64,000 bases of DNA from an uncultured Planctomycetota bacterium (GCA_963737655.1 CAVTTN010000002.1:7539828-7603827); one strand, 5' to 3'. Shown: positions 1,017 to 25,421, counted from the first letter of the stretch. Program-made: numbers and translations. Notes: generated by a model not told the origin, from the sequence alone.

Positions 1017-1907
1017 ATGACTCTCCCATCCGCACTGGTCCTGCTCCTCGCGATCCCCGCCCAGGCCCCCGCCCGGGACGAGGGCGCGGGAAGCTGGCTG
1101 CCGATCCTCCGCCAGCAAGCCTCGGAGTACGCGATCGTGCCGAGAGATCCGGCCATCCGGCCGCCGAAACCTCGGCCCGACCCGATCCTCCGCTGGACCC
1201 AGCCCGTCCGAGGGGGCGATGACGGCGCCGTCTTCCTCTGGGTCACCGACGACGGCCGCCCCGCCGCCGTGGCCACGATCTTCACCTATCGCGTCCCCGA
1301 CACCAAGAGGACGATCCAGCACGAGGTCCACTCCTTCCTGCCCACGGGACTCGACGCCTCCTGGCGAGGTCGTCCGATGTGGAAGGCCGACGCGCCCGGC
1401 CTGTCCTTCCGGCCCGTCCCCGATGCACCCGAGCCGGCCGGGTCCGCCGCCGCCCGCCTCCGCCAGATGCAGGCCCTCGCCCGCGAGTTCTCCGGCGAAA
1501 ACGTCCACGAAAAGGCCGGCAGGAACGAACTCCGCCTGATGCCCAGACCCCTCTATCGCCAGCCCTCGACCGATGCCGACCCGAAGGACGGGGCCCTGTT
1601 CTGCCTGGCCCACGGCACCGACCCCGAAGTCTTCCTCCTGATCGAGTCGCGGAAGGGATCGGGCGGTGTACTCACATGGCAATACGCCCTCGCCCGCTTC
1701 TCCGACCTCGCGCTCAAGGTCCGCCTGAAGGGCCAGGAGGTCTGGAGCGTCGGGCCCGGCCAGTGGCAGCGCCGCGACGGCATCCACGCCTACTACATCG
1801 CCGAGATGGTCGATGCCGACACGCCCGAGGAGTACCGCAAGGCCGAAAAGACGGACGGAGACGGCCCGGCGCTCCCGGTCCGCCCGGGTTCCGAAGAATT
1901 TCGTTGA
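1017..1907 (+). CDS. Secreted hypothetical protein, paralog 2
   Basis: ATG at 1017; hydrophobic N-terminus; RWTQPVRGGDDGAVFLW, PVPDAPEPA, RLRQMQALA, DGALFCLAHGTDPEVFL, WQYALAR. Confidence 0.75.
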   Translation: MTLPSALVLLLAIPAQAPARDEGAGSWLPILRQQASEYAIVPRDPAIRPPKPRPDPILRWTQPVRGGDDGAVFLWVTDDGRPAAVATIFTYRVPDTKRTIQHEVHSFLPTGLDASWRGRPMWKADAPGLSFRPVPDAPEPAGSAAARLRQMQALAREFSGENVHEKAGRNELRLMPRPLYRQPSTDADPKDGALFCLAHGTDPEVFLLIESRKGSGGVLTWQYALARFSDLALKVRLKGQEVWSVGPGQWQRRDGIHAYYIAEMVDADTPEEYRKAEKTDGDGPALPVRPGSEEFR

Positions 1908-1960
1908 CAACGCCCGGGGCTCGGCGATATTTGTAGTCACACGAGGCATCTCGTCACCCT
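1889..1960 (+). promoter_or_regulatory. Sigma70-type promoter with candidate BlaI-type operator (copy A)
   Basis: TTGACA at 1904-1909; GATATTTGTAGTC at 1926-1938; 21-bp and 20-bp blocks identical to the reverse complement of 25370-25421 upstream of blaI. Confidence 0.7.
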
Positions 1961-1974
1961 CGCGGGAGGTCCCC

Positions 1975-2931
1975 ATGCTCGGCGGAAAAGCCCCGGCGAT
2001 GGCCATCCTCGCCGCCCTGGCCGCCTTCACCCCGCCCGACGATCCGCGGCCCGAGGCCGGGGTCCCGGTCCGCCGGGCCCTGGTCCTCTGCGGCCTCCCG
2101 GGCGACGAGGAACATCGCGAACACTACGGCGCGGCCGTCGAAAAGATCGCCAAGGCGCTCGTCGATCGTTGCGGGTTCGCCTCCGAGAACGTCTGGGTCC
2201 GGTTCGGCGTCGCCGCCAGGGACGGCGACGGCCCGGCGATCCGAACCGGCCGCGGCCTGTCGACTCGCGAGGGGCTCGCGGCCGACGCCGAGGCCCTTCG
2301 CAAGGCGTCCCGGCCGGGGGACGCCCTCTGGGTCATCGTCCTCGGCCACGGGCACTTCGACGGCCGGACCGCGCACCTCAACTTGCCGGGGCCCGACGTC
2401 TCGGCCCTCGAATTCGCGAAGCTGTTCGAGGACATCCCCGCGACGGAACAGGTCTTCTTCCTGACCACCTCGTCGAGCGGGTACTTCCTCAAACCGCTGT
2501 CGAAGAAGGGTCGGGTCGGGATCTCGGCCACCGAGGCCGACCTGGAAGTCAACGAGACCCGATTCGGCGCCGCCCTGGCCGACGTCCTGGCCGAGCCACC
2601 GCCCGAGGCGGATCGCGACCGGGATGGCACGATTTCCGTCTTCGAACTCTACCTCGCGGCCGTCTCCGAGGTCATGAAGCGATTCGCCGACGACGAGCTG
2701 ATCGCCACCGAGCACGCCCAGATCGACGACAACGGCGACGGCCACGGCAGCGAAATCCAGCTCCTCTTCCTCCCGCCGGACCCCGGCGGCGAGAGGCCCG
2801 ATCCGAAGCCCAAGGACCCGGCGAAGACCGTCGCGAAGAAGGCGCCCGCACTCGGCCCGACCGACGACGGGGCCCTGGCCGCGAAGCTCCGGGTCAGCCA
2901 GGCGAAACCCCCGGCCGGAGGCTCCCAATGA
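1975..2931 (+). CDS. Exported hypothetical protein, possible caspase/C13 (clan CD)-like fold
   Basis: GGAGGT RBS at 1965-1970; ALVLCGLPGD, VIVLGHG, TRFG, EF-hand-like DRDRDGTISVFE, TEHAQIDDNGDG. Confidence 0.6.
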   Translation: MLGGKAPAMAILAALAAFTPPDDPRPEAGVPVRRALVLCGLPGDEEHREHYGAAVEKIAKALVDRCGFASENVWVRFGVAARDGDGPAIRTGRGLSTREGLAADAEALRKASRPGDALWVIVLGHGHFDGRTAHLNLPGPDVSALEFAKLFEDIPATEQVFFLTTSSSGYFLKPLSKKGRVGISATEADLEVNETRFGAALADVLAEPPPEADRDRDGTISVFELYLAAVSEVMKRFADDELIATEHAQIDDNGDGHGSEIQLLFLPPDPGGERPDPKPKDPAKTVAKKAPALGPTDDGALAAKLRVSQAKPPAGGSQ

Positions 2932-3725
2932 GGCTCGCCATCGCCCTGATCCTGGCCCTCCCCGCCCTCGACGACGTGGCCGGCGAGCGTCAGACGCCCG
3001 CCGAGCGGCTGGTGTCTCTCAAGAGTACGATGAAGTCTTATGAATTGACGCTCCGTCGGGACGACGCGCCCGGGAGCCTGGGAGTCCAGGAGGAGCCGGC
3101 CTTCCGAGTGGGCCGTCAGCGAGGCAACTTCGTCGATGGCGCGATCTTCCTCTGGCTCGACGACGTCGGCCGGCCCGAGGCCGCGATGGAAGCGTTCCTC
3201 CTCAGCGAGCCGGACGTTCCCAACGGCAAGTGGATTCACGAGTTCACGTCGCTCGCCACCGGGCCGATCGAGGCGACGATCGGCGGCAAGACGCGATGGT
3301 CGCCGACCGTCCCGGGCCTGGAATTCCGGGCCGTCCCCGGGGCGCCGAAGCCCGCGAACACCCCCGCCGCCCGGCTCCGCCAGATGCGCGCGATCGCCGA
3401 CGAGTTCAAGGCGGACGACGATTTCGGGGGCTCGGGCTGGCTCTCCCTGCGGATGCTCACCACGCCGATCGCCCGCTTCGGCAAGACCGGGGCGGAGCCG
3501 GAAGACGGCGCCCTCTTCGCCCTCGTCGATGGGACCGACCCCGAGGTCTTCCTCTTCGTCGAGGCCCGCAAAGGCAAGGAAGGGCCAGAATGGCAATATG
3601 CTCTCGCCTCGATGGGTTGCTGGGCCGTGAAGGTCCGTCGCGACGGCAAGCCCGTCTGGGAGCTTCCGAGGCGCTCCACCGGCGATCCCTCGAAGCCTCT
3701 GTACAACTACCCCTTCTGGCCCTGA
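2928..3725 (+). CDS. Secreted hypothetical protein, paralog 3
   Basis: ATGA overlap with the previous stop, GGAGG RBS; DGAIFLW, WIHEFTSL, RLRQMRAIA, DGALFALVDGTDPEVFLFVEAR, WQYALA. Confidence 0.75.
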   Translation: MRLAIALILALPALDDVAGERQTPAERLVSLKSTMKSYELTLRRDDAPGSLGVQEEPAFRVGRQRGNFVDGAIFLWLDDVGRPEAAMEAFLLSEPDVPNGKWIHEFTSLATGPIEATIGGKTRWSPTVPGLEFRAVPGAPKPANTPAARLRQMRAIADEFKADDDFGGSGWLSLRMLTTPIARFGKTGAEPEDGALFALVDGTDPEVFLFVEARKGKEGPEWQYALASMGCWAVKVRRDGKPVWELPRRSTGDPSKPLYNYPFWP

Positions 3726-3771
3726 ACCGTCGCAACCCGACCCATTTCGGAGGCGGCACCGCCGGACTTCG

Positions 3772-4566
3772 ATGAGCGTCCTGCCCTCGTCCGCGATCCT
3801 GATCGCCGTGCTCGCCCAGGCGGCCCCCTCGCCCCGCGACGAGGCCGCCGAACGCCTGAAATTCATGAAAGATTCGGTGGCCGTCTACGAATTCACGAGA
3901 GAATCCGGCCCGCTGAAGCTCGTCAGCGAGCCGGCGTTCCGCCTCGGCAATCAGGGCAACGGCGTCCTCGAAGGCGCCATCTTCCTCTGGACCGACCCGA
4001 AGACGGACCGACCCGGGGCCGCCGCCCAGGTGTTCCTCCACCGGAATGACCTCCAGCCCGAAGGTCGATGGCTTCACGAGTTCACGTCGCTTTCCACCGA
4101 CCCGTTCGTCGCCGCCCGGGGCCGGTCCGAGCCGTGGAAGCCGGAGGGGCCGGGCGTGGTCTTCAAGCCCGTCCCCGGCGCGCCCGCCCCGGCCGCGACG
4201 CCCGCCGCCCGGCTCCGCCAGATGAGGGCCCTGGCCCAAAGCTTCAAGGCCGTGGACGACTTCGGCAATCACGGCACCTTCGAGCCGCTCCGCCTCCTCA
4301 CCACGCCCGTGGCCCGCTACGGCAAGCCCGGGGTCGTGCCCGAGGACGGCGCCCTCTTCGCCTTCGTCCAGGGGACCGACCCCGAGGTCTTCCTCTTCCT
4401 CGAGCTGCGTAAGGGGAAGGATGGGCTGGAGTGGCAATATGCGTGCGCTCCCATGTCTTGCTGGCCCCTGAAGGTCTCGCGGGACAACGCCGTCGTCTGG
4501 GACGTCCCCTTGAGGTCGTCCGAGGACCCGAGCAAGCCGTTCTTCTGCCTGACCTACGTCCCCTGA
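3772..4566 (+). CDS. Secreted hypothetical protein, paralog 4
   Basis: Signal-like N-terminus; EGAIFLW, WLHEFTSL, RLRQMRALA, DGALFAFVQGTDPEVFL, WQYACA; closest to paralog 3. Confidence 0.75.
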   Translation: MSVLPSSAILIAVLAQAAPSPRDEAAERLKFMKDSVAVYEFTRESGPLKLVSEPAFRLGNQGNGVLEGAIFLWTDPKTDRPGAAAQVFLHRNDLQPEGRWLHEFTSLSTDPFVAARGRSEPWKPEGPGVVFKPVPGAPAPAATPAARLRQMRALAQSFKAVDDFGNHGTFEPLRLLTTPVARYGKPGVVPEDGALFAFVQGTDPEVFLFLELRKGKDGLEWQYACAPMSCWPLKVSRDNAVVWDVPLRSSEDPSKPFFCLTYVP

Positions 4567-4603
4567 TCGCCCCCGATCGTCTCCGCCCGAGCGAGGCCCC
4601 GCG

Positions 4604-5638
<1,035 letters not shown>

Positions 5639-5645
5639 ACCGGCC

Positions 5646-6542
5646 ATGCCGTTCGACGATCGCGAGCTGATCGACCCGGCGTTCTTCTCCCGACTCGACT
5701 CGCTGGAGCTCCGCGCCCGCTCGATCGTCGAGGGGGCGATGCACGGCCTCCACCGCAGCCCGTATCTCGGGATGAGCGTCGAATTCTCCAGCCACCGCGA
5801 GTACGCCCCCGGCGACGACCTCCGCCACCTGAACTGGAAGCTCTACGCCCGCCACGACCGCCTGTACATCAAGGAATATGACGCCGACACGAACCTGAAC
5901 CTCTACTTGATGGTCGATATCAGCGCCTCGATGGGCTGCGCCCACGCCGGGATGAGCAAGCTCCAGTACGCGGCGACCCTCGCGGCGGCCCTCGCCCACC
6001 TCGCCCTCTCGCAGAGGGACGCCGTGGGCCTGACCCTCTTCGCCGATTCCGTCGTCGCCCACCTCGCCCCGAAAGCGAAGGCCCATCAGTTCGACGAGAT
6101 CCTGGCCACGATCGCCTCGGCCCCTCTGCGCCAGGCCACCGGCACCGAAAAGGCGCTCCACCAGGCCGCCGGGCTGGCCAGGCGTCGCGGGCTGGTCGTC
6201 GTCCTCAGCGACCTCTTCGGCGACCCCGAGGCGATCGGCGGCGGGCTGGACCATCTCCGCTACCTGAATCACGAGGTGATCGTCTTCCACGTCCTCGACC
6301 CGATCGAGCGCGGCCTCGCCCTCGACGGCCTGATCCGCTTCCGGGACCTGGAGACCGGCGAGACGATCACCACCCAGGCCGAGGGCGTCCGCGACGCCTA
6401 CCGCAAGGCCGTGGACGACTGGAGCCAGGCCCTCGAGATCGAGTGTCGCAAGAGGGCCATCGAGCGCGTCGAGCTCCTGACCACCGACCCGCCCGACCGG
6501 GCCATCCTCGACTACCTGGCGAAACGCGCGGCGACCCTCTGA
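5646..6542 (+). CDS. DUF58 (vWA-like) MoxR partner
   Basis: GLHRSPYLGMSVEFSSHREYAPGDDLRHLNWK, MVDISASM, VVLSDL; directly after moxR. Confidence 0.92.
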   Translation: MPFDDRELIDPAFFSRLDSLELRARSIVEGAMHGLHRSPYLGMSVEFSSHREYAPGDDLRHLNWKLYARHDRLYIKEYDADTNLNLYLMVDISASMGCAHAGMSKLQYAATLAAALAHLALSQRDAVGLTLFADSVVAHLAPKAKAHQFDEILATIASAPLRQATGTEKALHQAAGLARRRGLVVVLSDLFGDPEAIGGGLDHLRYLNHEVIVFHVLDPIERGLALDGLIRFRDLETGETITTQAEGVRDAYRKAVDDWSQALEIECRKRAIERVELLTTDPPDRAILDYLAKRAATL

Positions 6543-6576
6543 TCGGATCGAGACTCGATATTTCGGAGCGAAACCC

Positions 6577-7406
6577 TTGCGCAAGAGACCGACGATCCGA
6601 TTCGCCCCGCTCCTGCTGCTCGTCCTCTCCGGGGCCGACGATCCGAAGCCGCCGAGGGCGAAGCTCATGCGCGCGATGGCCGGCGAAATCGAAGTCGCGT
6701 CCGCGGACCTCGCGACGAAATATCCGATGATCGGCGAGCCGATCTATCGGTTCGACGACCCGACTCGCAGCTTCTCCGACGGAACCGTCTGGGCCTTCGG
6801 CCCGAAGGACGGCCGACCGGAGGCGCTGCTCACGCTCTCCCTGGAGGGCGAATCGGGCGGCCTCTGGCACTGGATCTACGAGTTCACGTCGCTCTCCTCA
6901 AGCAAGGTCTGCGCGACCGGTCCCGCCGATATCCGCTATTTGCCGTGGGTGCCGGACGAGCCGGGATCCGCCTCAAACCGTTCCCGAAGGCCGATCCTCC
7001 CGCTTCGGACGCGCCGAAACGGCTCCGCCAGATGCGCGAGCTCGCCCGCCGGTTCCGCTCCGACGAGACGTTCGAGCCCAAGCCCGGGCTCAAGCCCGAG
7101 CGCTACGAATTGCGCCTTTTGAGCCAGCCGGTGCTGCGGTATTCCGACCCCAGGAACGGCCTGATCGACGGGGCGATCTTCCTCATGGCCTACGGCCAGA
7201 ACGCCGAGATCGTCCTGGTGATCGAGGCGAGGCGCGAGGGCGAACTCGCGCCGGCCTGGTCGTTCGGGGTCGAGCGGATCTCGGCGGCCGAGTCCCGGGT
7301 CAGGCTCGATGAGGCGGTCGTCGTCGAGTTCCCGAGAATCCGCGATAATGTGATGACGCGAACCTATGCGGGCTTCAGCCGGCCGAGCCCGGCCGGGAAG
7401 GAGTGA
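6577..7406 (+). CDS. Secreted hypothetical protein, paralog 5 (one-base frameshift near 6963)
   Basis: ORF 6577..7122 (DGTVWAFG, GRPEA, WIYEFTSL) continues in ORF 6945..7406 (RLRQMRELA, LRLLSQPVLRY, DGAIF, IEAR); one missing G restores a full-length member. Confidence 0.7.
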
Positions 7407-7412
7407 CGCCCG

Positions 7413-9359
7413 ATGAGCTTCGTCCAGGGGGGGATGCTCGCGGCCCTGGCCGCGCTGGCGATCCCGATCCTGATCCATCTCCTGTTCCGTCGCAAGGCCC
7501 GGCCCGTGGACCTGGGCACCCTCCAGTTCCTCAAGGTCGTCCTCCGCGACACGACCCGGCGCCGGAGGCTCAAGCGGTACGTCCTGCTCGCGATGAGGCT
7601 CGCGGCGGTCGCCCTGATCGCGCTGCTCTTCGCCCGTCCCTACCTGCTCGCCCACGAGCCATCCGAGGGGAGCCGCCTCGTGGTCGTCCTCGTCGATCGA
7701 TCGGCCAGCATGGGGCTGAAGGGCGGCACGTCCCCCTCCGATCGCGCGGCCAGGGAACTCCGCGAGATCGTCGCGAGATCGGGAAAAGGCACGCAACTCG
7801 AACTGGCCGCGTTCGATCGCGCCATCTCGCCGATCGCGAAGCCCTCCGACCCTGCGACGGACGCCCTGAAGCCCGGATCAGCCGGGACCGACTACGCGCC
7901 CGCGATGGCCTGGGCCCGCGACGTGAGCATTCGATCGCGCGCGAAATCCAGGGAGTTGTACATCCTCACGGATTTGCAACGATCGGGCCTCGACCGGGGC
8001 GAATCGGTGGCGATGCCGGGCGACCTGGACGTGCATCTCACCGACTTCGGCCGTCTATACCCGAAGAACCTCGCCGTGGTCGCCGTCTCGCTCTCGTCGC
8101 CGACGATCCGCCCCCGCGACTCGACGACCGTCTCCGCCACCGTCCGCAACGCATCGCCGATGCCCGTCGAGAAGGTCTCCGTGAGGCTCCATCTCGAATG
8201 CCCCGGCAACGAGCCGATCGACCGCGAACGGGCCGTGGACGTGGACGGCAACGGCTCGGCGGTCCTCGCATTCCCGCTCACCGACCTGGACGCGGGTTTG
8301 TGGCGAGGACATGTCGAAATCGGCACGAGCGATGATCTTCCGATCGACGATCGCCGCTATTTCGCCATGCCCGTGTCACGGCCCGCGAGGGTCCTCCTGA
8401 TCGACGGCGACCCCGGCGCCTCGCCCATCGAGTCGGAAACCTTCTTCCTCCGCGCCGCCCTCCGGCTCGCCCCCGAGGGCGAAACGTATGCGAAATCGCC
8501 ATTCTTGACGACAACCATCGCTGCGCAGTCACCGCTGCCCGAACTCGATCCGATCGCCGTCGTGGTCCTCGCGAACGTCGGCGATCTTCCCGCAGATCGT
8601 GCGCGACAACTCGCCGAATTCGTGGCGAGGGGAGGTGGACTCGTCGTCTTCACCGGCGACCGAGTGACGGCCGAATCGGCCCGATCCTGGATCGACGCGG
8701 GCCTCGGCGTCGGACGAGTCCTCGGGGCGGAACACGCGGCCGATCGGCCGTTCCGCCTCGAATCGTGGGATGATTCGCACCCGATCTTCCGGCCGTTCGC
8801 CGACCCCGAATCCGGAGACCTCCGCCGCCCGACGTTCCTGGCGATTACGAAGGTCGACCCCGAGCCATCGAGCCGAGTCCTCGCGCGATTCCGGGGCGGC
8901 GCCCCGGCCCTGATCGAGCGATCGGTCGGGAAAGGGCGCATCGAAATGTTCGCATCGGCCTGCGATCACGCCTGGGGCGATTGGCCCCGAGGGCGGATGT
9001 TCTTGCCCATGGTCCACCAGATCGTCGCGCAGGCGGCCGGACTGGCCGACGGCGGCCCGACTCGCGAGGCGATGGCCGGATCGAAGGAGATTCCCGGGAT
9101 TTTCGAGGAAAACGGCCGCCTGCGCGTCGTGAACGTCGATCCGTCCGAGTCGGAGCTGGCTCGGTGTTCCTCGGCCGAGTTCGCGGCGAAATTCGGGTTG
9201 CGGCTCGCCAACGCGAACCCCAGGGTCGAGGCGCCCAGGGCGGTCCGATCGCGGGCCGACGACCGCCTACGGCCCGACGAGCTCTGGCCGTGGATCGCCC
9301 TGGGACTCATCGGCCTGTTGATGCTCGAAAGCCTGCTCGCCAATCGGACGTCCGCATAA
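7413..9359 (+). CDS. BatA N-terminal domain plus vWA membrane protein
   Basis: IPILIHLLFRRK...LQFL BatA motif; MIDAS-like DRSASM; YILTDLQ; C-terminal TM ELWPWIALGLIGLLMLE. Confidence 0.88.
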   Translation: MSFVQGGMLAALAALAIPILIHLLFRRKARPVDLGTLQFLKVVLRDTTRRRRLKRYVLLAMRLAAVALIALLFARPYLLAHEPSEGSRLVVVLVDRSASMGLKGGTSPSDRAARELREIVARSGKGTQLELAAFDRAISPIAKPSDPATDALKPGSAGTDYAPAMAWARDVSIRSRAKSRELYILTDLQRSGLDRGESVAMPGDLDVHLTDFGRLYPKNLAVVAVSLSSPTIRPRDSTTVSATVRNASPMPVEKVSVRLHLECPGNEPIDRERAVDVDGNGSAVLAFPLTDLDAGLWRGHVEIGTSDDLPIDDRRYFAMPVSRPARVLLIDGDPGASPIESETFFLRAALRLAPEGETYAKSPFLTTTIAAQSPLPELDPIAVVVLANVGDLPADRARQLAEFVARGGGLVVFTGDRVTAESARSWIDAGLGVGRVLGAEHAADRPFRLESWDDSHPIFRPFADPESGDLRRPTFLAITKVDPEPSSRVLARFRGGAPALIERSVGKGRIEMFASACDHAWGDWPRGRMFLPMVHQIVAQAAGLADGGPTREAMAGSKEIPGIFEENGRLRVVNVDPSESELARCSSAEFAAKFGLRLANANPRVEAPRAVRSRADDRLRPDELWPWIALGLIGLLMLESLLANRTSA

Positions 9360-12400: not shown

Positions 12401-12858
12401 GATCCCTGGAAGTCCTCGGTCAATCCCTGGAATTGCTCCATCGCGGGATCGTGGCGCCAAGGCTCGCGGCGATGGTCGAGTTCGATCGTCGGGTGGCGGA
12501 GCTCGCCGCGAAGCTCGCCCATCTCCACACCGATGCTCAGATCACCGCATGGCATCGCGAGGCCGCGGCGCTGATTCGGGACCTCGAAAAGGCCGGGATC
12601 GCCGAGGCCGCCGAGCTGGCCGAGGCCCTCAAGGCCGGTGGCTGGAACGGTCGAAATGTCGGCTGGGGCTGGGCCGACGGCATCGACAGCCGAGTGGCCC
12701 CGGGCGGCTACACCAACGCGCTCCGGGCCGTCTCGACCGCGATGAAGGACCAGATCCAGGAGATGATGCTCAAGGACCTCGCCTCCGCTCGCGACGAGGC
12801 CGCGCCGCCCAGGTTCCGAGAAATGATCGATCGCTATTATGAAGTCCTCTCCAAATAG
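9431..12858 (+). CDS. Large membrane-anchored Ig-like/coiled-coil protein (DUF4175-like); frameshift near 10620
   Basis: GTG after AAAGGA; three N-terminal TM segments, PPEYTG, DDFGL, long helical E/A/K-rich region, C-terminal PPRFREMIDRYYEVL; ORFs 8981..10675 and 10672..12858 join with one added base. Confidence 0.75.
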
Positions 12859-12954
12859 GGTGCAGGGAAGGCACCCACCCCCGGATCGGGCCCCGAGCCT
12901 ATCCCCTGGACGATGGCGGACCACCCCGCGAACCCGAGTTGCCCACGCCCCATC

Positions 12955-16157: not shown

Positions 16158-17888
16158 CTATTTCTTGACGTCCTTCCGGGCGGCCGTCGTCGCGGCCGAG
16201 GCCTCCGTGGCATCAATCAACCCGTCACCGTCCGCGTCGAGCGCCTCGAATTGCGCCTTCGAGCCCAGGAATTCGCGGCTCGAAAGGTCGCCGTCGCGGT
16301 TGCGGTCCATCCGGCGGAACCAGCTCGGGCCATTTCCGACCCCGCCCGCCCTCGGCCCGTCCATCGGCCGGTCGACCACCGGCCCGGCAATATTGCCCAT
16401 CCCCACCAGAGACCCCCGGCCCAGGGTCAGGCCGAAGTGGTGCGGGATCTCGTCCGAGGAGACCTTGCCATCGCCGTTCCGGTCCCACGAGGAGACCCGA
16501 TCGATGGTCCCCCGAAGCTCGCGCAGGCCGAGCCGGCGGTCGCGGTTCAGGTCAAGAATCGCGAAGATGGCCCGGCCCTGGTCGGCCGTGGTCAGAAGCA
16601 GGCGGCTCCTCGCGGCCTCGGTTTGCTTCTCCACAAATCCCGTCAGCTCCTTGAGATACACCTTGCCATCGGCGTCGCGATCGAGGACGTCGAACAGGCC
16701 GGCGAGCGAGGAAGGGTGGTCTTTGTCCTTCATCATCTCGCTCTTTTCGAGATATCCATTATTATCGGAATCGGCCTGGTCGAACGCGGCGACGAACGAG
16801 GCGAGGGCGGCCTCGGCGGCCCGGGCGCCGTCGTCCACGTGCACTTCCAGGCGGACCTCATCGACCGCGATCTCCACGTCTCCGCCGCCGAGTTGCTTGA
16901 CGATCACCTTGGCGGGCAACGTATCTCCCGAGCCCGAAGGCCCCCGGACTGCGACCGTGGCCGCCCCGGCCGCGTCGGCCGAGAGCGCCACGGCGAGCAC
17001 CAGATCGGGCGCGCTGGCGGCGAGGAATCGGCGAAGTTCCTCGATGTCGAGCCGGCCGTCGGCGTCCGCGTCGGCCTTCTGGAACCGCGCCGGTTCGATC
17101 CCGAACTCGCTGCGGGCCAATCGATTATCGCCGGCCACGGCGCCGTCGGAAGCACCTCGATCGTACCGTTTCATCAAGAGCCGGACGGGCCGGAGCGTGG
17201 CATCCTCGCGGTCGATCTCCAGGACCGGAGGCACCGCCGAGAACCGGGCCCGGCGGGTCGAGGGGTCTTCGGCTCCCATCATGGTCGGGTCGGCGAACGG
17301 CTCAAGCTCCGCCTCGTCCACCAACTCGTCGTCATCGAGGTCCAGCTTGAGGAGACCGGCGCCGTCCTTCATTTCCGCCGGGATCAGGACTCCGTCCTTG
17401 TCCCCGTCGAGTTGATCGAACAGGGCGTCCGTCTTGCCTCCCGAGACCTTGCCGACCTCCACGCGGAAGGGACCGAGGGCCGTCCGCAGTGCCTCCGCCA
17501 GCTCGTCGAGCGAGACCTTGCCGTCCTTCGGATGCATGTCGAGCTCGGTCCGGGGCAGGGCGGTGGCGGAGCCGTTGGCGACCCGGACGATGGTGGCGAG
17601 TGCCGACCGATCCGCCTCCTCTTTCGTGACCGTCCCGTCGCCGTCGCGATCGAGATAGGCGTGCAAAGTCTTCACCGAGTCCATCCAGGCCGACCGGAAC
17701 GGACGATCGCCGAGCGTGACCTCCAGCCGGAGGAAGATGGGCCGGTTGTCGCCCAGGAAGATCAGGTCCTGGACCGAATCGCCCGAGGCGGGTCGCGCCA
17801 TCGCGGGCGGGGACTTCGGCGTTGGCTTGTCCGCCGCAAATGCCGGGCAGGTCAGCAGTAGCGTCAGGAATGCGATGCCGCGTTTCAT
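16158..17888 (-). CDS. Secreted multi-EF-hand Ca2+-binding protein
   Basis: Signal peptide MKRGIAFLTLLLTCPAFAA; about 11 DxD/NxDG loops (DRDGDGTVTKEE, DSDNNGYLEKSE, DRNRDGDLSSRE and others); ATGA overlap with the DUF1501 stop. Confidence 0.88.
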   Translation of the reverse strand: MKRGIAFLTLLLTCPAFAADKPTPKSPPAMARPASGDSVQDLIFLGDNRPIFLRLEVTLGDRPFRSAWMDSVKTLHAYLDRDGDGTVTKEEADRSALATIVRVANGSATALPRTELDMHPKDGKVSLDELAEALRTALGPFRVEVGKVSGGKTDALFDQLDGDKDGVLIPAEMKDGAGLLKLDLDDDELVDEAELEPFADPTMMGAEDPSTRRARFSAVPPVLEIDREDATLRPVRLLMKRYDRGASDGAVAGDNRLARSEFGIEPARFQKADADADGRLDIEELRRFLAASAPDLVLAVALSADAAGAATVAVRGPSGSGDTLPAKVIVKQLGGGDVEIAVDEVRLEVHVDDGARAAEAALASFVAAFDQADSDNNGYLEKSEMMKDKDHPSSLAGLFDVLDRDADGKVYLKELTGFVEKQTEAARSRLLLTTADQGRAIFAILDLNRDRRLGLRELRGTIDRVSSWDRNGDGKVSSDEIPHHFGLTLGRGSLVGMGNIAGPVVDRPMDGPRAGGVGNGPSWFRRMDRNRDGDLSSREFLGSKAQFEALDADGDGLIDATEASAATTAARKDVKK

Positions 17889-19225
17889 CCCAGGACCTCC
17901 TGGATCGCCGTGGCCTTGGGATCGACGATGCGGATCGGGCGGCCCACGTCCGAGATGTTCTGCTTGCCCGGGTCGATCCCCAGGACGCGACAGACCGTGG
18001 CCAGGAAGTCGGGTACCGTCACCGGCCGATCCTTGACCGCCATGCCGTCGGGCCCGGTATTGCCGATCGCCTGGCCCCCCCGGATTCCCCCGCCCGCCAG
18101 GACCGTGGACCACGCCGTGGGGAAGTGGTCGCGGCCGGCATCCTTGTTGATCTTCGGGGTCCGCCCGAACTCTCCCATCCACACAATCAGGGTCGAATCG
18201 AGGAGACCTCGCGACCGAAGGTCGCTCATGAGGGTTCCCCAGGCCGGGTCGAGCGTCCCGCACAGGGCCTTCACGGCGTCGAAGTTCTTCTGGTGGGAGT
18301 CCCAGCCGAATACGGTCGAGCCCTGGGCGGCCGAGAGCGTGACCTCGATGAACGGAACGCCTCGCTCGACCAGCCTCCGGGCGAGCAAACACCCCTGACC
18401 AAAAGAGTTGCGTCCGTACGCATCGCGGACCGCCGCCGGTTCCTCCTCCAGCTCGAACGCCTTCGCGGCCGGCGACCTCATCATCTTCACGGCCCGGAGG
18501 TAGGCGTCCTGATGGCTCAAGGGGGCGGCCCCGGGATGGGTCGCGAGGAAGTCTTTTGAGAGCGAAGACATCAGGTTCAGCCGGGAGTCCGCGCGGTTCG
18601 CCGTAACTCCCGGAGGCGGGTTGAGGTCCTCCACCCTCAATGAAAGCTTCGAACCCTCCGAATCTCCCAGGACCCCCCGTTCTCCCACGATCAAGGGCGC
18701 ATATTGCGGACCCAGGAACCCCGAGCTGAACGCAGCCGGGTTGAACGCCCGGAACGGCGAAACGCTGACGAATCCGGGAAGCTCGGCCGATTCGTCGGCA
18801 AACTCCTTCGCCACCAGAGAGCCAAATGTCGGGTAGTGGATCGGTCCGGTCGGCTGATAGCCGGTCCGAAGGTTGAACGTGGCCCGGCCATGGTCACCTT
18901 CCTTCGTGCTCATCGATCGGACGATCGCCAGATCTTTCATCTGGGCCGCCAGTTGCGGCAAGTGTTCCCCGATCGAGATCCCCGGAACCGCCGTGGCCAG
19001 GGGCTGGAATGGCCCATTATGGGCATGGCCCGGCTTGGGGTCGAACGTGTCGATCTGGCTCGGCCCGCCCGACATCCACAGGAGGATGCATGACTTCCGC
19101 CGTTTCGGGTCGGCCGCCGCATGGGCCGCCAGGGTCTCAATCCACCCCGAAGCCGAGGCACCGATCGCCCCGGCCGAGGCCAGTCGCAGCCATTGCCGAC
19201 GAGTCAGGCGGTCCGATCGGTCCAT
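17885..19225 (-). CDS. DUF1501 family protein (Tat-like signal)
   Basis: TRRQWL, ILLWMSGGPSQIDTFDPKP, FGQGCLLARRLVERGV, GEFGRTPKIN, GRDHF. Confidence 0.93.
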   Translation of the reverse strand: MDRSDRLTRRQWLRLASAGAIGASASGWIETLAAHAAADPKRRKSCILLWMSGGPSQIDTFDPKPGHAHNGPFQPLATAVPGISIGEHLPQLAAQMKDLAIVRSMSTKEGDHGRATFNLRTGYQPTGPIHYPTFGSLVAKEFADESAELPGFVSVSPFRAFNPAAFSSGFLGPQYAPLIVGERGVLGDSEGSKLSLRVEDLNPPPGVTANRADSRLNLMSSLSKDFLATHPGAAPLSHQDAYLRAVKMMRSPAAKAFELEEEPAAVRDAYGRNSFGQGCLLARRLVERGVPFIEVTLSAAQGSTVFGWDSHQKNFDAVKALCGTLDPAWGTLMSDLRSRGLLDSTLIVWMGEFGRTPKINKDAGRDHFPTAWSTVLAGGGIRGGQAIGNTGPDGMAVKDRPVTVPDFLATVCRVLGIDPGKQNISDVGRPIRIVDPKATAIQEVLG

Positions 19226-19299
19226 GACAACCTCGTAGAGTGCATGAAGTGCACCGTCTGGGGAAGAGACGTAGAATTCCGGGGGCTCGTTGGAAGTGA

Positions 19300-20910
19300 T
19301 CAATGATTATGCTTAAATTCCGGGCCATTCAGCAGGGCCCAGAACACGTCCGCCAGCGCCGCCGAAAGTTCGGTCGGCGTTCCAGCCTTCTCGACGTACG
19401 CACTCAGGAAACGCAGCTCGTCCGGGGAAGGCCGGCGAGTCAGGGCGGCGAGGTAAAGGGCCTCGATCCGACCTGGCGTGTCAAGATAGGGTGCCTCGGC
19501 GATCGCCGCGAGCGTGTCGCCCGTCTCCGGGTTAGTCGCCCCGGCGACGATCTGCCCGTTCATGAGCGTAAGGGCCTGGAGAATCGACGTTTGCGCCTCG
19601 GTTGGCTTCTCGTCGCGGTTGGCGAAGAGTTCCAGGAATCGCCCCCTGGCATCGCCTCCATAGCTCATCCCGCCCTCGCCGCTTCGATAGCCCGTGGCCT
19701 GGGCCAGACTCTCGAAAAGCTGGCCGGGCGAGAGGCCCCGGACGGTCATGGCCGAGAACAGGGCCGGGGGAGATGGGTCGGGCCGATCAACCCGGCTGGT
19801 CAGGCCGTAGGCGCGGGTTGCGGTGATGGCGCGGATCAGGTATTTCAGGTCATAATCATGGGCGACGAACTGGCGAGCCAGGGAATCCAGAAGCTCCGGG
19901 TGGGCGGCCTCGTTATCGGCGCCCATGTCATCGACGGGATCGACCAGACCCACGCCGAAAAACCTGGCCCAGACTCGGTTTACGGCGGCTCGGGCGAAAT
20001 ACGGATTGGTCGGCGACGTGATCCACTCGGCCAGAACGTCCCGCCCCTCCACCCGCGGCCGCCATAGGGGCTCGATGCCATCAAGATGGGTGGCCTGCAC
20101 AATTCGCGTGGTTCCAGGGATCGTCAATTCTTTCCGACCGGAGACCTCGCGAATCGCGCCGGGATTGTCGTCGGTCCCTTGCCTCTGAACCCCCGCGAAA
20201 AACGCCGCAAACCCCCAGAACTCCTCACGTTTCCACTTCGCGAACGGATGGTCGTGGCATTGGGCGCACTCGAGGCGGATGCCGAGGAAGACGCGCGAGG
20301 CCCCGGCGGCGAGGTTCTCCGGCTTCCCTTCCTTGGCGGTGTAGAACGCGACGGGAGTCGCCTCGATCCGGCGATCAGTTCCGGAAGTTATTCGCCCACC
20401 GAGTTTTGCGGTCAGGACTTCCTTGACGATGTCGTCGTAACCGGCCTCCTCGATCACCTTCTTTCGCAACCAGGCTTCGAACGGCCACGAGGCGAAGCGA
20501 GCCTGGCCATCGGTGTCGGCCTCGGGCAAGAGCAACTGCCGCCAGAGTTCGACCGCGCGAGCCGAGTAGGCCGGACTCGCGAGGAGCCGCTCGACGAGGA
20601 TCCGCCGCTTATCGGGGCTGGGGTCGTCGAGGAAATCGCGGGCCTGGGCCGCCGTGGGGATCTTGCCCACGAGATCCAGGCTCACGCGTCGGAGATACTC
20701 CGCATCATCGGCCGGGCCAACCGGCCTGAGCTTGGATTCCGCCCATTTTGCCGAGAGCATGCGGTCAATCAGGGCCGTGAGTTCGGCCGAGTCGCGGGAC
20801 GTTCGGGCCGGGTCGACGCCCTTCTTCCGGGCATCGGCCGACCGGGCCGGTTTCGGGGCGATCAAGACGGCCAGGATGGCGGCAACGAGCCCGAGGCGAC
20901 GTGTTCGCAT
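19300..20910 (-). CDS. DUF1549/DUF1553 planctomycete cytochrome-like protein
   Basis: YLRRVSLDLVGKIPT, FLGIRLECAQCHDHPF (CxxCH), NPYFARAAVNRVW, QALTLMNG, WALLNGPEF. Confidence 0.93.
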   Translation of the reverse strand: MRTRRLGLVAAILAVLIAPKPARSADARKKGVDPARTSRDSAELTALIDRMLSAKWAESKLRPVGPADDAEYLRRVSLDLVGKIPTAAQARDFLDDPSPDKRRILVERLLASPAYSARAVELWRQLLLPEADTDGQARFASWPFEAWLRKKVIEEAGYDDIVKEVLTAKLGGRITSGTDRRIEATPVAFYTAKEGKPENLAAGASRVFLGIRLECAQCHDHPFAKWKREEFWGFAAFFAGVQRQGTDDNPGAIREVSGRKELTIPGTTRIVQATHLDGIEPLWRPRVEGRDVLAEWITSPTNPYFARAAVNRVWARFFGVGLVDPVDDMGADNEAAHPELLDSLARQFVAHDYDLKYLIRAITATRAYGLTSRVDRPDPSPPALFSAMTVRGLSPGQLFESLAQATGYRSGEGGMSYGGDARGRFLELFANRDEKPTEAQTSILQALTLMNGQIVAGATNPETGDTLAAIAEAPYLDTPGRIEALYLAALTRRPSPDELRFLSAYVEKAGTPTELSAALADVFWALLNGPEFKHNH

Positions 20911-20937
20911 GACCGCTTTCCTCCCTCGAAAATCCTG

Positions 20938-23900
20938 TCACCGTAACGATTTCCGACCTGAGATTCCCCCCAGGCCGGGCACGTCCCAGAGCTTGGCCGT
21001 GCCGTCGAGCGACCCGGTCGCGATCGTCCATCCATCCGATGAACAGGCCAATCCGAAGACCGCGCGTGAATGACCCACCAATCTTGCCCGTTCCCCGCCG
21101 GTTTCCAGGTCGAACAAGGTAACGCAACCATCCCCACGGCCCGCCACCGCCAGGATTCTCCCATCTGCCGCAATTCCCAGGGCCCGGACCGCGGCCGGAA
21201 AGCCGCCGAGGGTCAGCTTCGCTCGCCCCTCAGCCAGGTTCCAGAGCCGGGCCGTCGCATCGTGCCCTCCGCTGGCCAGGATGCGTCCGTCCGGCGAGAA
21301 GGCGAGCGTCAGGACCGAACCCGCATGACCCACGAGATCCGCAACCTCAGTCCTGGAATCGACTTCGAAAACCTTAATTTCACCAAAGGCATCCTTGCGT
21401 CCATCCCGGCCCCCGCCACCGGTTGCTATCAGCCGCCCATCAGGGCTAAAAGCCACAGCATGGAGCGAACCGCGAAACTGGTGGAGATGGGCGATTTCGG
21501 TTCGCTGGGCAATCTTCCAGAGCGACAGGACCCGATCTTCGCCGGCCGAGGCGAGGAGAGTCCCATCGGGCGAAAAAGCAAGGCTCGTCGCCCCTTCGGT
21601 CGCCGCAAGTTCCCCGTCGGGAGCGCCATCGGCGACTTTCCAGAGCCGGATCGTTCGATCCCAACTGCCAGAAGCCAAAGACTTTCCGTCGGGTGAAAAG
21701 ACGAGCGAGGAGACCCCCCGCGCGTGCCCAACGAGCGTGGCGCGGACTTTTCGGGTCGCCAGGTCCCACAGGACGATGTCGCCCGGGGCGTCATAGGCCA
21801 CGGCCCCGACGGCAAGAATGGTGCCATCCGGCGAAAATGCGGTTGGGCCGAGGCATCCGAGGTCGCCCTTGAGGCTCGCCCGAGGGGATTCCCGCCGAGC
21901 ACCCAGGTTCCAGAGCCGAACCGTTCCATCGCGACTCGCCGAGGCGAGGGTCCGGCCATCCGGGGCGAACGCCACCGAGGCCACGAGGTCGCCGTGCCCC
22001 TTGAGGGTGGCGAGCTTCCGGCCCGAAGCCACCTCCCAGAGAAGCAAATCGCCGCAAGCCTGTCCTGCGACAAGGAATCGGCCGTTTGGACTGTATGCCG
22101 AGCACGTTGCGTCGGCCGCTTTCCACCCGTTCTTCTCAACGAATGTCCCAGGGTCCCATAGATGGATATGTCCGTCCCCGCCGCATGAGGCGATCGACCG
22201 GCCGTCGGGCGAGTAGGAGACGCTGGCGATGGCTCCGGCCCGGCTTACGAACGAACCGAGCCGCTCGCCGGTCTGGAGCCGGTAGAGTACCACGGAACCT
22301 GCCTCGTTCTCCGGCCGATCTCCTGTGGCAATCGCCAGTTGCGTCGAGTCTGGTGAAAATGCGACGGCGGCGACGGTCGTGGATTGCCGGAAAGATTCTC
22401 GCGGTCGACCAGGCGTCGTCCAGTCCCAGACGAACACCTCGCCATCTGCCCCGCCCGAAGCGAGCAGGCGCCCATCCGAACTGAATGCGAGTGATCGGAC
22501 TGAACCCCTGTGTCGTTCAAGGTTTGCAACGACCTGTCCATCATCCGACCGGACGAGCCGCACCGTCCCGCTTTCGCCTCCGACGGCCAGGGTCGAGCCG
22601 TCGGGAGAAACCGCCATGACCGGCCCTCCCACGGCGAGCGGCTTGCCGAGGACCAGGCCGGTCGATGGATCGTAAATCGTGATGGAATCGCACTTTCCGG
22701 CGACGAAGACGCGGCGACCGTCCGACGAGAAGGCGACCGAACGGGCCTCGTTGGGAAAGTTCAGGATCGAGGCGGCCGAGAGGATCGGCGAGGCCGGCTC
22801 CCAGAGCCGGACTGTCCCATCATAACCTGCGGATGCAAGTTGGCGTGCCCCGGCGCGAAGCTCAGCGACGCAACACCTTCGCCGTGGCCGGTTAACGTGG
22901 TTCGTTCGCGGCCGGTCCGTACGTCCCAGAGCTTGATCGACGCGTCCAGGCTCCCGCTGGCCAGGGTCTCGCCGCCCGGGGAGAAGGCAAGAGACAGAAC
23001 CATATCCTGATGACCCGTGAGAGCCACCCGTTCTCGTCCCGTCCTGAGGTCCCAGAGACGGACCTCGCCGTCCTCGCCGGCCGAGGCCAGGGTCCGGCCG
23101 TCCGGGGCGAAGCGGACCGCTCGAATGGTGCCCGAGTGTCCCTGGAACCTGATCTTCTCACAGGACTTACGCCAATCCCATAGGATCACCGCTCGGTCGG
23201 CGCCGGCGGAGGCCACGGTTGATCCGTCCGGCCCGAACGCGACCGAGCGGACGGCCGAGGTATGGCCGGTGAGGATCGACAGCGGCGTCCCCGTGGCGGA
23301 GTCCCAGAGGCGGATCGTCCGGTCCGAGCCGGCCGAGGCGATCGTCTTGCCGTCCTGACTCACGGCCACGGCGAACACCCAGTTCGAATGGCCCTCCAGC
23401 GTGCGGACGGGTCGGCCGTCGAGGCTGCTCCAGATTCGGATGGAGCGATCGTAACCTCCAGAGACAACATGATTTCCGTCGGGAAGAAAAGCCAGGGACG
23501 TGATGGTGTCCTCGCCCGGGATGCGGACCTGGAGAGTCCCGGTCCTGGCGTCCCGAATGATGATGGAATGATCCTCGCCGGCCGTCGCCAGGAGGCGGCC
23601 ATCGGGCGAATAGGCGACCGCCAGGACGGGCATGCGGGCGAAGCCGGCCGAGGCGACCCGGTCGTCGTGAAGGAACGTGGAACCGGCCGAGAAGAGGCGA
23701 GGCTCGTCTTCCGTGGTAAGTCCAATCGGAGCGGGGGTTTGAGACTCGGCGACGGCCTTGCGAGGGCGTCCGTACGGCAGGACGATCAGTGCGAGGATGA
23801 GCAGGCCCGCCAGCGCCCGGCCCGAGAGTCGATCGTGGATCGTCCGACGGTTGTCCAGGATGCGGAGAAGCCGCCGACGGATCAGCATTCGTGATTCGAA

Positions 23901-24914
23901 TAATCCCAGGGCCGCGGCCGCCGAGGGGATGGCCGAATCGACCGTCCGGCCCACGACGGTCAGGAACCCCTCGCCGCAATCGTGTCGAGGGACATGACTT
24001 GCGGCCAGGGCCATGTCGTCGCACGCGAACTCGCGCAGTTCATCCAGGATCCAGTTGGCCAGGAGCGCGGCCGGGTGGAAGAAGAACACGGCGCCGACGA
24101 GCCTCTGGAACGTGAGCACCCACAGATCCCCTCGACGGACGTGCGCCAGCTCGTGGAGGAGGACCCAGCTCATTTGCTTCGGCGTGAGGTCGTCTTCCAG
24201 GTCGGGCGGGATCACGACGGTGGGCCGGATCAAACCGCCGACGGCCGGGGAGGTGATCCTGGGGCTAACCGCCCAACGGATGCAACCCTTGACGCCAGAA
24301 GCCTTTCGAAGGGCTTCGAGGTCGATCGCGAGGCATTCGGAGGCGTCTTCCAGGGGGATGGCCTCGCGAAGCAGACGGCGGAGCGCGAGGACCGATCTCG
24401 CGAATCGACCGATCAGCAGCGAACAAACGGCCGCCCATCCGATCATGAAGAGGGCCGGCAGTTGGATACCAGGCGCCGGAGTTTGGGCCAGGTCGGGCCG
24501 AGGCGAGGGATCGCCTCCAGGCTCTGCGGGCCGAATGGCCTCGACGGGCACGGCCGTGGCGGCCACGATCGGCTCGGGTTCGGGCACGGCGATCACCACC
24601 GGGTCCTCGGAGGGGAGGACTTCGGGGACGGTCTCGACCGGGGGAGCGGGCCGGCTCCATTTCGAGGCCCGGACCGCGGCCGATCGAATCGAGGCGGACG
24701 TGATCGTGTTCCAGGGGACGGGGATCGGCAGGGCCAGCTTCAGCAACACCAGAAGGAACAGCCCGTACGCGAGTTGCGCCGACATTCTCCGACGCAAAGG
24801 GAGCCAGATCGCCAGGACGACCGCCAGCACGAGCGACGCTTCGACCAGCGATCGCAGGACCAGCGAGGCCCAGACCGCTCCCCACGCGTTGAGCGTCTCG
24901 ACGAGGGCGGTCAT
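20938..24914 (-). CDS. BlaR1-type M56 metallopeptidase fused to about 21 WD40 repeats; frameshift near 22850
   Basis: N-terminal TMs, SPAVGGLIRP, HELAH zinc motif, REFACD; then GH...WD repeats; adding one base at the C4 run 22848-22851 gives FAPGARQLASAGYDGTVRLW and joins ORFs 22761..24914 and 20938..22632. Confidence 0.88.
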
Positions 24915-25333
24915 GGCGCCTCCTCACCCTCCGGCCCTGGCTCCTCGTCCTCGCCCCGGGCGTGCTGGTCCAGGACTTCGCGGAGCTGGGTCAGGTCCTC
25001 GGGAGAAAGTTTGCTCTTCTTCATCATGTAAAGAAGCAGCTTTCCGTCCATGCCTTCCAGGGTGTTATTCAGGAGGGTGTCGGCGGCTCCGGCGACCGAC
25101 TGCCAGGCGGGGCGGGCGGGTTTGTACAGGTAGCTCGTGCCCACGGGCGTGGCGGTGAGGTGCCCCTTGTCCACGAGCCGGCGCAGGAGGGTCTTCGTCG
25201 TGGTCGGGGTCCAGCCGTGGACCCGCCCGGCCTCCTCGTACACGTCCCGGGCGGCGCAGCTCTTGTGCCGCCAGACGATCTTCATGACTTTCCATTCGGC
25301 GGCCGTCAGCGGCCGGGGGGCCTCGCGAGCCAT
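24911..25333 (-). CDS. blaI: BlaI/MecI/CopY family repressor
   Basis: LTAAEWKVMKIVW, WTPTTTKTLLRRLVDKG, LSPEDLTQLREVL; ATGA-coupled to the M56 gene. Confidence 0.93.
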   Translation of the reverse strand: MAREAPRPLTAAEWKVMKIVWRHKSCAARDVYEEAGRVHGWTPTTTKTLLRRLVDKGHLTATPVGTSYLYKPARPAWQSVAGAADTLLNNTLEGMDGKLLLYMMKKSKLSPEDLTQLREVLDQHARGEDEEPGPEGEEAP

Positions 25334-25350
25334 TCTTCGGGCGTCCCGGA

Positions 25351-25421
25351 GTGTGACGAAATCAGTCGGGTGACTACAAATATCGCCGATCGGCCGGAGG
25401 TGTCAACGAAATTCTTCGGAA
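25351..25421 (-). promoter_or_regulatory. blaI promoter with candidate operator (copy B)
   Basis: Reverse complement reads TTCCGAAGAATTTCGTTGACA-N11-TCGGCGATATTTGTAGTCAC, matching 1889-1940; TGTA half-site as in TACAnnTGTA BlaI/CopY boxes. Confidence 0.72.

Follow-up and report, generated by a model that had tools for sequence, protein, structure and literature searches.

Background

BlaI and BlaR1 form the textbook Gram-positive route of beta-lactam sensing. A gene pair of this kind also lies in a 64,000-nucleotide (nt) stretch of DNA from an uncultured Planctomycetota bacterium (GCA_963737655.1 CAVTTN010000002.1:7539828-7603827; hereafter the window, i.e. the whole stretch analysed, with positions counted from its first letter), where one promoter-like element occurs twice, 23 kb apart, in front of two operons that face each other. 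A sequence-only reading of the window had suggested that BlaI probably controls both operons. The locus raises the question whether the two copies are one regulatory module and, if they are, which protein acts on it. In this paper, we have compared the two copies with each other, with the rest of their own genome (G000; 7,630,435 bases in 3 contigs) and with a set of 121 Isosphaeraceae genomes, hereafter the family genomes. We put a probability of roughly 0.7 on the reading that the two copies are one sigma-70-type promoter joined to a conserved block, and that BlaI likely binds at both, forming an autoregulated BlaI regulon.

Two copies of one module head two facing operons

The two copies are listed below with their scores against R1, a sequence-only profile built from 26 copies of the module.

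1889 to 1969, plus strand: copy A, whole module (R1 match of 67.4 bits, E 2.8e-19)
25344 to 25422, minus strand: copy B, whole module (R1 match of 68.5 bits, E 1.3e-19)

Aligned without gaps, copies A and B are identical at 21 of 21 positions (TTCCGAAGAATTTCGTTGACA, through TTGACA), agree at 5 of 11 positions of a spacer, are again identical at 20 of 20 positions (TCGGCGATATTTGTAGTCAC), agree at 5 of the next 10, and end in a common TCGTCAC (7/7); the two gapless matching stretches, with a diverged spacer of equal length, that the sequence-only reading described are thus real. Its placement of the copies also agrees with our coordinates: copy B precedes blaI, its end lying 10 nt from the ATG of that gene (25333), and copy A precedes the gene at 1975 and the MoxR cassette, with 5 nt between its end and the ATG. 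The two transcription units converge, the plus-strand genes ending at 15424 and the minus-strand ones at 16158, and no intergenic gap in either gene string exceeds 128 nt.

The likeness falls to the background level outside 1884-1961 and 25349-25426, and these two arms are the longest inverted repeat of the window (78 nt, 82% complementary). With 3 mismatches or fewer allowed, a 41-nt pattern matches the window twice and 100 dinucleotide-preserving shuffles not at all. Searches of the entire 7.63-Mb genome by pattern, by a fuzzy half-by-half search and by the R1 profile returned just copies A and B, and relaxing R1 to E <=10 added a single match of 25 nt (E 1.3). With two copies in the genome, the high-copy repeat that had been named as an outcome speaking against the original claim does not apply here.

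The blocks shared by the two copies are constrained in other genomes

In each copy, an upstream block is followed by TTGACA, a spacer without conservation, GATATT and about 40 conserved bases that span the predicted start site. The parts are given below, with columns numbered as in the conservation profile; P stands for a family of secreted proteins described further on.

1889 to 1903, plus strand: upstream block of copy A (TTCCGAAGAATTTCG), at about -50 to -36; conserved family-wide (columns 3-17); overlaps the final codons of the upstream P gene
1904 to 1909, plus strand: -35 hexamer TTGACA of copy A (promoter call); near-invariant, with 58-65 agreements per column among the 65 distinct copies spanning it
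1910 to 1925, plus strand: 16-nt spacer of copy A; first 11-13 nt unconstrained, columns 24-39 below 0.45 bit each
1926 to 1931, plus strand: -10 hexamer GATATT of copy A (promoter call), columns 44-49
1932 to 1957, plus strand: post-promoter block of copy A, the predicted operator (columns 50-80), with TGTAGTC, two dyads and TCGTCAC (1951-1957)
25421 to 25407, minus strand: upstream block of copy B
25406 to 25401, minus strand: -35 hexamer of copy B
25384 to 25379, minus strand: -10 hexamer of copy B
25374 to 25365, minus strand: GTCA-CC-CGAC of copy B
25359 to 25353, minus strand: TCGTCAC of copy B

TTGACA-16-GATATT was called as a sigma-70-type promoter at both copies (10/12 match, 0 expected in shuffles), in keeping with the promoter reading proposed earlier. 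The two hexamers are near-invariant across the 66 distinct copies of the module on which our conservation profile is built, 64 of them from other genomes, and the 16-nt spacing fits the 16-18 nt of sigma-70-type promoters. On the sole basis of the hexamer positions, transcription start sites are predicted near 1938-1940 for copy A and 25372-25370 for copy B. The -35 hexamer of copy A contains the TGA stop codon of the upstream P gene (open reading frame 966-1907).

The family profile reads ttCCGAagaAttTCGTTGACA, 13-14 free bases, CGgCGATAtTTGTAGTCrtrCGACk, and tgaTyCGTAAcCt. Of the columns conserved to 80% or more among the 64 other copies, 38 of 41 have the same base in A and B; the agreement is 17 of 22 for columns of intermediate conservation and 8 of 15 for free ones (<60%). 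According to this profile, the blocks identical between A and B are those constrained everywhere, and the spacer in which they diverge is free everywhere; the earlier argument that the block pattern of identity means selection is borne out by the 64 copies elsewhere, which keep the same blocks and leave the same spacer free. Three features had escaped that reading: the conserved block extends about 30 nt farther downstream, it holds a better 4-2-4 dyad, and the module is a family-wide multi-copy element, the commonest target of which is the P gene family.

One may ask whether a recent duplication, gene conversion or a small mobile repeat has left A and B alike, with no regulatory meaning. Consistent with such an origin, the copies are more alike than chance even in the free columns, and both carry derived C bases at two positions that are T and A in the family. 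Their mismatches, however, fall exactly in the columns that are free in the 64 copies from other genomes, the likeness stops at the module edges, the genome holds two copies, and the same positions before orthologous genes are occupied across at least 12 genera. We therefore consider this explanation highly improbable. A dispersed repeat or miniature mobile element was likewise rejected as a candidate, the copy number being 2 here and 2-14 in relatives, with fixed gene context and orientation.

The two shared bases are a C for the family T (GTCAT to GTCAC) and a C for the family A (TCGTAAC to TCGTCAC), located at 1939-1940 and 1955 in copy A and at 25371-25370 and 25355 in copy B; a genome of the same genus, G080, keeps the family bases at both positions. 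They may reflect a concerted change of both sites in one genome, or conversion.

The upstream block may be a UP-like element, or else the site of a second factor. It was also tried as a general promoter feature and rejected as such: among the 480 TTGACA sites of the genome, TTCG precedes the hexamer 7 times against 2.9 expected, two of these being A and B. A degenerate relative of the module lies before the first P gene of the window (98-949), at G000:C2 ~7539690-7539770, i.e. 60-140 nt ahead of window position 1; it consists of CTTCGAAAGATTTCGTTGATC, 18 nt, TACAAT and CGTCGTCATGATCC, keeps the upstream block without the downstream one, and gives no R1 match. Elsewhere on contig C2, about 90 nt at 5520740-5520840 (plus strand) and 4922180-4922280 (minus strand) are alike, AT-richer, and end in CGGCGAAATnTGTAGTCAACTTCC; this pair is a separate two-copy element, its likeness to the module being limited to TGTAGTCA.

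The module occurs where this BlaI occurs

A 15-mer of the module, GATATTTGTAGTCAC, was found with at most one mismatch in 14 of the 121 family genomes, reversed controls being near zero. Four of its loci (L004, L011, L014 and L015) show no further likeness or module context, and all the others share the full architecture; these four were left out of the alignments together with L012 and L025, which duplicate L001 and L002, and the copy of L038 is represented there by L006. The R1 profile gave 86 matches in 19 of the 121 genomes, of which 16 carry strong matches, with 2-14 copies each, and three (G063, G108 and G109) weak partial ones. The carriers are mostly metagenome-assembled genomes (MAGs), with a completeness of 54-99%; G089, 99% complete in 3 contigs, may come from a cultured strain. 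An exact 22-base pattern, run against 185,579 species at one genome each, recovered 36 loci, all of them in records titled as Isosphaeraceae, Isosphaerales, Singulisphaera or unclassified Planctomycetota MAGs.

An ortholog of the window BlaI (>=73% identity) is encoded in 15 of the 121 genomes, partially in G030 and split in G025, and in all 15 an R1 match lies 6-11 nt upstream of blaI on the same strand. Where the best BlaI homolog is at most 66% identical, there is no strong module copy; G109 alone (48%) has one weak partial match (E 0.005). The scan of related genomes therefore upholds the link of the element to BlaI loci that had been drawn from the window. The P family is found in 16 of the 121 genomes, namely the 15 with the BlaI ortholog and G026, a 60%-complete genome in which the module is present. 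Two genomes of the window's own genus, G081 (96% complete) and G082, lack the BlaI ortholog, the module and the P family, and the set of all three thus behaves as an accessory island.

The genes behind the module were classified by the first recognisable gene, using tblastn with the window's proteins, for the 65 of the 84 R1 matches outside the own genome for which the surroundings were fetched; the 19 left out have E values of 1.4e-5 to 0.009. Fourteen copies precede blaI-M56-WD40-PSCyt2/PSD1-DUF1501, the gene order of the window, and 37 precede a P gene, often heading the series P, P, C13-like, P, P, MoxR, DUF58, P, BatA. Two stand directly before C13-like-MoxR, as copy A does, one before BatA, one before PSCyt/DUF1501 and three before WD40 genes (one of them 0.8 kb off), and nothing was recognised near the other seven. 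Altogether, 58 of the 65 precede one of six recognised gene kinds in constant orientation, and BlaI is the sole DNA-binding protein recognised among the genes behind them. A blaI copy and a copy heading P or P/MoxR genes share a contig, 12-34 kb apart, in 11 genomes; they face each other at 22-34 kb in nine (G000, G030, G033, G036, G037, G044, G047, G056 and G089) and stand in tandem in G080 and G025.

On these comparisons, a predicted BlaI regulon is well supported, because the module stands before blaI in every ortholog genome, because module, BlaI and P family co-occur, and because of the target genes and the linkage.

Candidate operators within the conserved block

The operator put forward in the sequence-only reading was a 16-nt near-palindrome matched at 13 of 16 positions and overlapping the -10 region. 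The 16-mer concerned, GGCGATATTTGTAGTC, is indeed conserved, but as a dyad it forms 4 of 8 Watson-Crick pairs, its 85% score counting G-T as paired, and most of the 13/16 match is trivial; we have rejected it as a dyad. The suggested TACAnnTGTA-type box at the -10 fared better in one half than in the other. The 10-mer GATATTTGTA fits TACAnnTGTA at 6 of 8 positions and hardly varies in its TGTA half (60-66 of 65-66 copies), but the conservation of its GATA half is uninformative, as this half coincides with the -10 hexamer; the 10-mer may still be a degenerate box.

A better candidate for the core site than the 16-mer, judging from the profile, is GTCr-NN-CGAC at the predicted start site. This first dyad is centred 9-10 nt after the -10 hexamer and has the 4-2-4 geometry of a TACA-NN-TGTA box; of the 15 blaI-type copies, 10 have perfectly pairing arms (GTCG/CGAC). 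Candidate half-sites on its flanks would be TTGTA and TyCGTAAC. A second dyad downstream of the 16-mer, TACGA-N6-TCGTA, is likewise better than the 16-mer; copy A has it in the form ACGAG-GCAT-CTCGT at 1941-1954.

Two paralog promoters in the own genome support the first dyad. The BlaI paralog at C2:5278787, 62% identical and with an M56 gene of its own next to it, has GACG-TT-CGAC equally far from its -10 (TTGACT-17-TAATCT). The second paralog, 27% identical, has GACA-NN-TGTC, a dyad of classical geometry, twice at C2:6421440-6421510 (GACAATTGTC and GACAGTTGTC), flanking and inside a TTGACG-17-TAGGAT promoter. A genome scan for the paralog's dyad was uninformative, since up to 2 mismatches gave 75 matches in this GC-rich genome. 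The BlaI orthologs hardly vary in their winged-helix part. Next to the 62%-identical paralog, a long inverted repeat of about 200 nt (C2:5278520-5278790), the arms of which begin with ACGTAGGGTGCATGAAATGCACCAGG and end with CCTGGTGCATTTCATGCACCCTACGT, abuts the -35 hexamer.

As the conserved block lies at the 5' end of both predicted mRNAs, the bases past the -10 might instead act as RNA, a leader hairpin (UACGA...UCGUA) stabilising or regulating the transcripts. With G-U pairs allowed, 85% of the cells are pairable, and copy A forms ACGAG/CUCGU. The stem, however, would have just 4-5 pairs, and each of two of the five pairs is broken in 17 of 63 copies. Among the 66 distinct copies, no pair has changed on both sides, and compensatory changes in the dyads show no excess over shuffles; such a lack of covariation in either dyad is as expected of protein sites and speaks against an RNA hairpin. 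No Rfam family scored meaningfully at either locus, the single match being HgcC (E 0.46) in another part of L002. A role as leader RNA is accordingly very unlikely.

How BlaI might act, and what speaks against it

By analogy with known systems, we infer BlaI as the binder, along with the core site, the direction of control and the signal. BlaI would occupy the block across the start site at both promoters and block RNA polymerase, so that one BlaI would repress both facing operons together. The WD40 domain of the BlaR1-like protease would sense a signal other than beta-lactam, its M56 domain would then cleave BlaI, and both operons would be released together; elsewhere, every P gene having its own cassette would be co-transcribed with them. 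The upstream block might serve promoter strength or a second factor.

Several observations weigh against BlaI acting in this way. Three overlapping dyads fit about equally, which leaves the exact site ambiguous, and no exact TACAnnTGTA dyad, the canonical BlaI box, occurs in the module copies. In the window itself the first dyad is degenerate, with 2 of 4 pairs in copy A (GTCA-CA-CGAG, 1936-1945) and 3 of 4 in copy B (GTCA-CC-CGAC). The upstream block, in which no BlaI-like dyad is present, equals the downstream one in conservation, which hints at a second factor. The P genes at 98-949 and 1017-1907, upstream of copy A, have just the degenerate promoter of the module kind. The recognition helix is nearly the same in the paralog at C2:5278787, and there may be cross-talk or binding by this paralog. 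Moreover, related genomes do not count as independent, and the co-occurrence of BlaI, module and P family is equally expected if the island is merely inherited whole, which does not in itself make BlaI the binder.

These points leave some room for a module controlled by another regulator, or by none, whose blocks would be a UP-like element, a discriminator, an initial transcribed sequence or the site of another factor, and from which BlaI would merely be expressed. The missing canonical box, the conserved upstream block, the co-inheritance of the island and the degenerate promoter before the first P gene, which keeps the upstream block and loses the downstream one, would all suit such an arrangement. 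It does not account so well for some 30 conserved bases past the -10 with dyad symmetry at a repressor position, nor for a module that is confined to genomes with this BlaI orthogroup and always stands directly before blaI (15/15); besides, no second DNA-binding protein was recognised behind the 65 copies, and the promoter of a paralogous BlaI/M56 pair carries a related dyad in the same place. We regard it as rather unlikely, yet as the most serious of the alternatives, and keep to BlaI binding at both copies as the preferred explanation.

A wider proposal is more doubtful and is offered tentatively. The two operons and the module may form a self-contained island of 23-35 kb, patchy in Isosphaeraceae, in which a BlaR1 with WD40 in place of the penicillin sensor would report a protein or envelope signal to BlaI; BlaI would govern a MoxR/VWA envelope machine together with an expanding family of secreted P proteins, each new P gene being recruited with its own cassette.

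Genes of the two operons

Gene families of the window were assigned by a Pfam profile scan and narrower models by NCBIfam. The minus-strand unit consists of the following genes.

24911 to 25333, minus strand: blaI, Penicillinase_R winged-helix repressor, 140 amino acids (PF03965, 99 bits against a cut-off of 22.6, residues 9-123)
22761 to 24914, minus strand: BlaR1-like M56 membrane zinc protease with a C-terminal WD40 propeller (Peptidase_M56 112 bits, WD40 225 bits, HELAH)
20938 to 22632, minus strand: WD40 protein (Pfam)
19300 to 20910, minus strand: PSCyt2/PSD1 (Pfam)
17885 to 19303, minus strand: DUF1501 (Pfam)
16158 to ~17870, minus strand: EF-hand protein (Pfam)

The window BlaI stays below the cut-offs of the narrow NCBIfam models, scoring best with CopY_TcrY (83 of 122 bits) and reaching 37-52 of 180-250 bits with the BlaI and MecI models. 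Its gene overlaps the M56 gene by 4 nt (24911-24914), the same pair is present in all 13 blaI loci of relatives that extend past blaI, and the gene order behind blaI in relatives matches this unit. The C-terminal 300 residues of the BlaR1-like protein are WD40 repeats and not a penicillin-binding domain, and blaR1_generic (77 of 400 bits) matches the protease part only; the protein is thus a BlaR1-like signalling protease and not a beta-lactam sensor.

The plus-strand unit behind copy A comprises the following.

1975 to 2931, plus strand: g3, first gene behind copy A, secreted, no Pfam family (peptidase C13-like lead only, from the Atlas)
2928 to 3725 and 3772 to 4566, plus strand: two P-family genes (repeats, homology)
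4604 to 5638, plus strand: MoxR AAA+ ATPase (AAA_3, 204 bits)
5646 to 6542, plus strand: DUF58/VWA protein (DUF58, 165 bits)
6577 to 7406, plus strand: fifth P-family gene, in two frames (6577-7122 and 6945-7406)
7413 to 9359, plus strand: BatA_N/VWA protein (BatA, 58 bits, with VWA_2)
~9431 to 10675 and 10672 to 12858, plus strand: two proteins without a clear family
12913 to 15424, plus strand: VWA/GATase1-like protein, in two frames (GATase1_like, 51 bits); end of the plus-strand unit

AAA_3 MoxR, DUF58 and BatA_N/VWA form one string, which makes this a MoxR-DUF58-VWA (Bat-like) cluster. In the window the fifth P gene occupies two frames, and its counterpart in G080 (L052) a single one; the GATase1-like gene shifts frame near 14900-15129. 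Both are frameshifts or assembly errors. Two repeats lie elsewhere in the window, a perfect inverted repeat of 34 nt, its arms separated by 190 nt (29605-29638 and 29829-29862) and a 34-nt hairpin-like repeat of AATCTGCGTAATCTGCG units (35067-35146).

The P proteins are secreted and about 270 amino acids long, with members in the window at 98-949, 1017-1907, 2928-3725, 3772-4566 and 6577-7406. They have 979 homologs at E <=1e-5, all unnamed; searches of Pfam and NCBIfam found no family, and the Atlas returned unnamed planctomycete clusters only. The AlphaFold model is a confident one (predicted local distance difference test score 93.3) and has two helix-plus-sheet halves. Foldseek matched it to nothing in the PDB at E <=0.001, and the best Z of a wide VIA-align search, 6.9, lies inside the noise stated for that tool. 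Some relatives have at least 21 copies per genome; in the own genome, neither the C13-like gene nor any of the five P genes occurs outside this locus. The peptidase C13 likeness of that gene, g3, comes from Atlas features only (0.91-0.95). Its product has a conserved GH.H.DG and, at the position of the cysteine in C13/caspase-like enzymes, T-x-A-S-G, orthologs having Ser or Ala there; g3 may thus be a non-cysteine or inactive form of a C13/caspase-like protein.

Comparison with known systems

BlaI-family factors are described as commonly repressing their own operon via inverted repeats, sometimes with four protomers (PMC8457756), and BlaI and MecI as being inactivated by proteolysis (PMC1935004). 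The window shares with BlaI/BlaR1 and MecI/MecR1 of Staphylococcus aureus and Bacillus licheniformis a Penicillinase_R gene, a 4-nt overlap, a gene for an M56 protease with HEXXH, and a candidate operator that occurs both at the promoter of the regulator itself and at a second operon; by analogy, proteolysis would be expected to bring about derepression here (PMC1935004, PMC9834060). The window differs from them in its WD40 sensor, in the lack of a beta-lactamase or penicillin-binding protein in the predicted regulon and of a TACAnnTGTA dyad, in having 2-14 sites per genome, and in its targets, an unnamed secreted family and a MoxR/DUF58/BatA cluster.

With the copper repressors CopY/CopR, the best NCBIfam score of the window BlaI (CopY_TcrY, below its cut-off) goes along with some likeness of the sites: against the cop box TACANNTGTA (PMC7253601), the 10-mer over the -10 fits at 6 of 8, and GTCr-NN-CGAC has the same 4-2-4 geometry. 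The window has no copper export genes, however, its BlaI has an acidic tail and not a C-terminal Cys motif, and the M56 protease is paired with it. BlaI_0696 and BlaI_1845 of Clostridium thermocellum have small self-regulated regulons with BlaR1 genes and hypothetical proteins, as here, and half-sites GTCTAT and GACTAT instead of TACA, in ordered sets that hold up to 4 protomers (PMC8457756); GACTAT resembles the complement of the invariant GTAGTC of the module. Those sites were shown by DNA affinity purification sequencing (DAP-seq) and electrophoretic mobility shift assay (EMSA), whereas the window sites are predicted from sequence, and half-site spacing, targets and phylum differ.

Control beyond beta-lactam resistance has precedents in PvmSR, an atypical BlaIR of Pseudomonas aeruginosa (bioRxiv 10.64898/2026.08.03.742534), and in BlaI (Rv1846c) of Mycobacterium tuberculosis (PMC12565901), though their organisms, sensor domains and regulons are unrelated to those of the window. 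Non-resistance BlaI/BlaR systems are therefore already known. Among the titles and abstract openings covered, we found no report of a WD40-sensor BlaR1 (an M56-WD40 fusion) in planctomycetes, nor of a link between BlaI/BlaR1 and MoxR/Bat clusters, including control of MoxR/DUF58/BatA.

MoxR-DUF58-VWA, or Bat-like, clusters are represented by the aerotolerance operon of Bacteroides. The window likewise has AAA_3 MoxR, DUF58, BatA_N with VWA and a GATase1-like protein in one string; here they are interleaved with P-family genes and a C13-like protein, behind a BlaI-type module.

Significance

The locus suggests that the two-protein logic of BlaI/BlaR1 is at work in planctomycetes with a WD40 sensor, and that its predicted regulon holds no resistance genes but a MoxR/DUF58/BatA cluster and a large family without a name or a recognisable fold. 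To our knowledge, little is understood of what MoxR/DUF58/BatA clusters do in any organism. Should BlaI bind the module, a site of 40 nt would define a whole regulon in 16 genomes and would give an experimental handle on the signal to which the cluster responds, and the module would be a clean example of regulon growth via the spread of a complete promoter-operator cassette.

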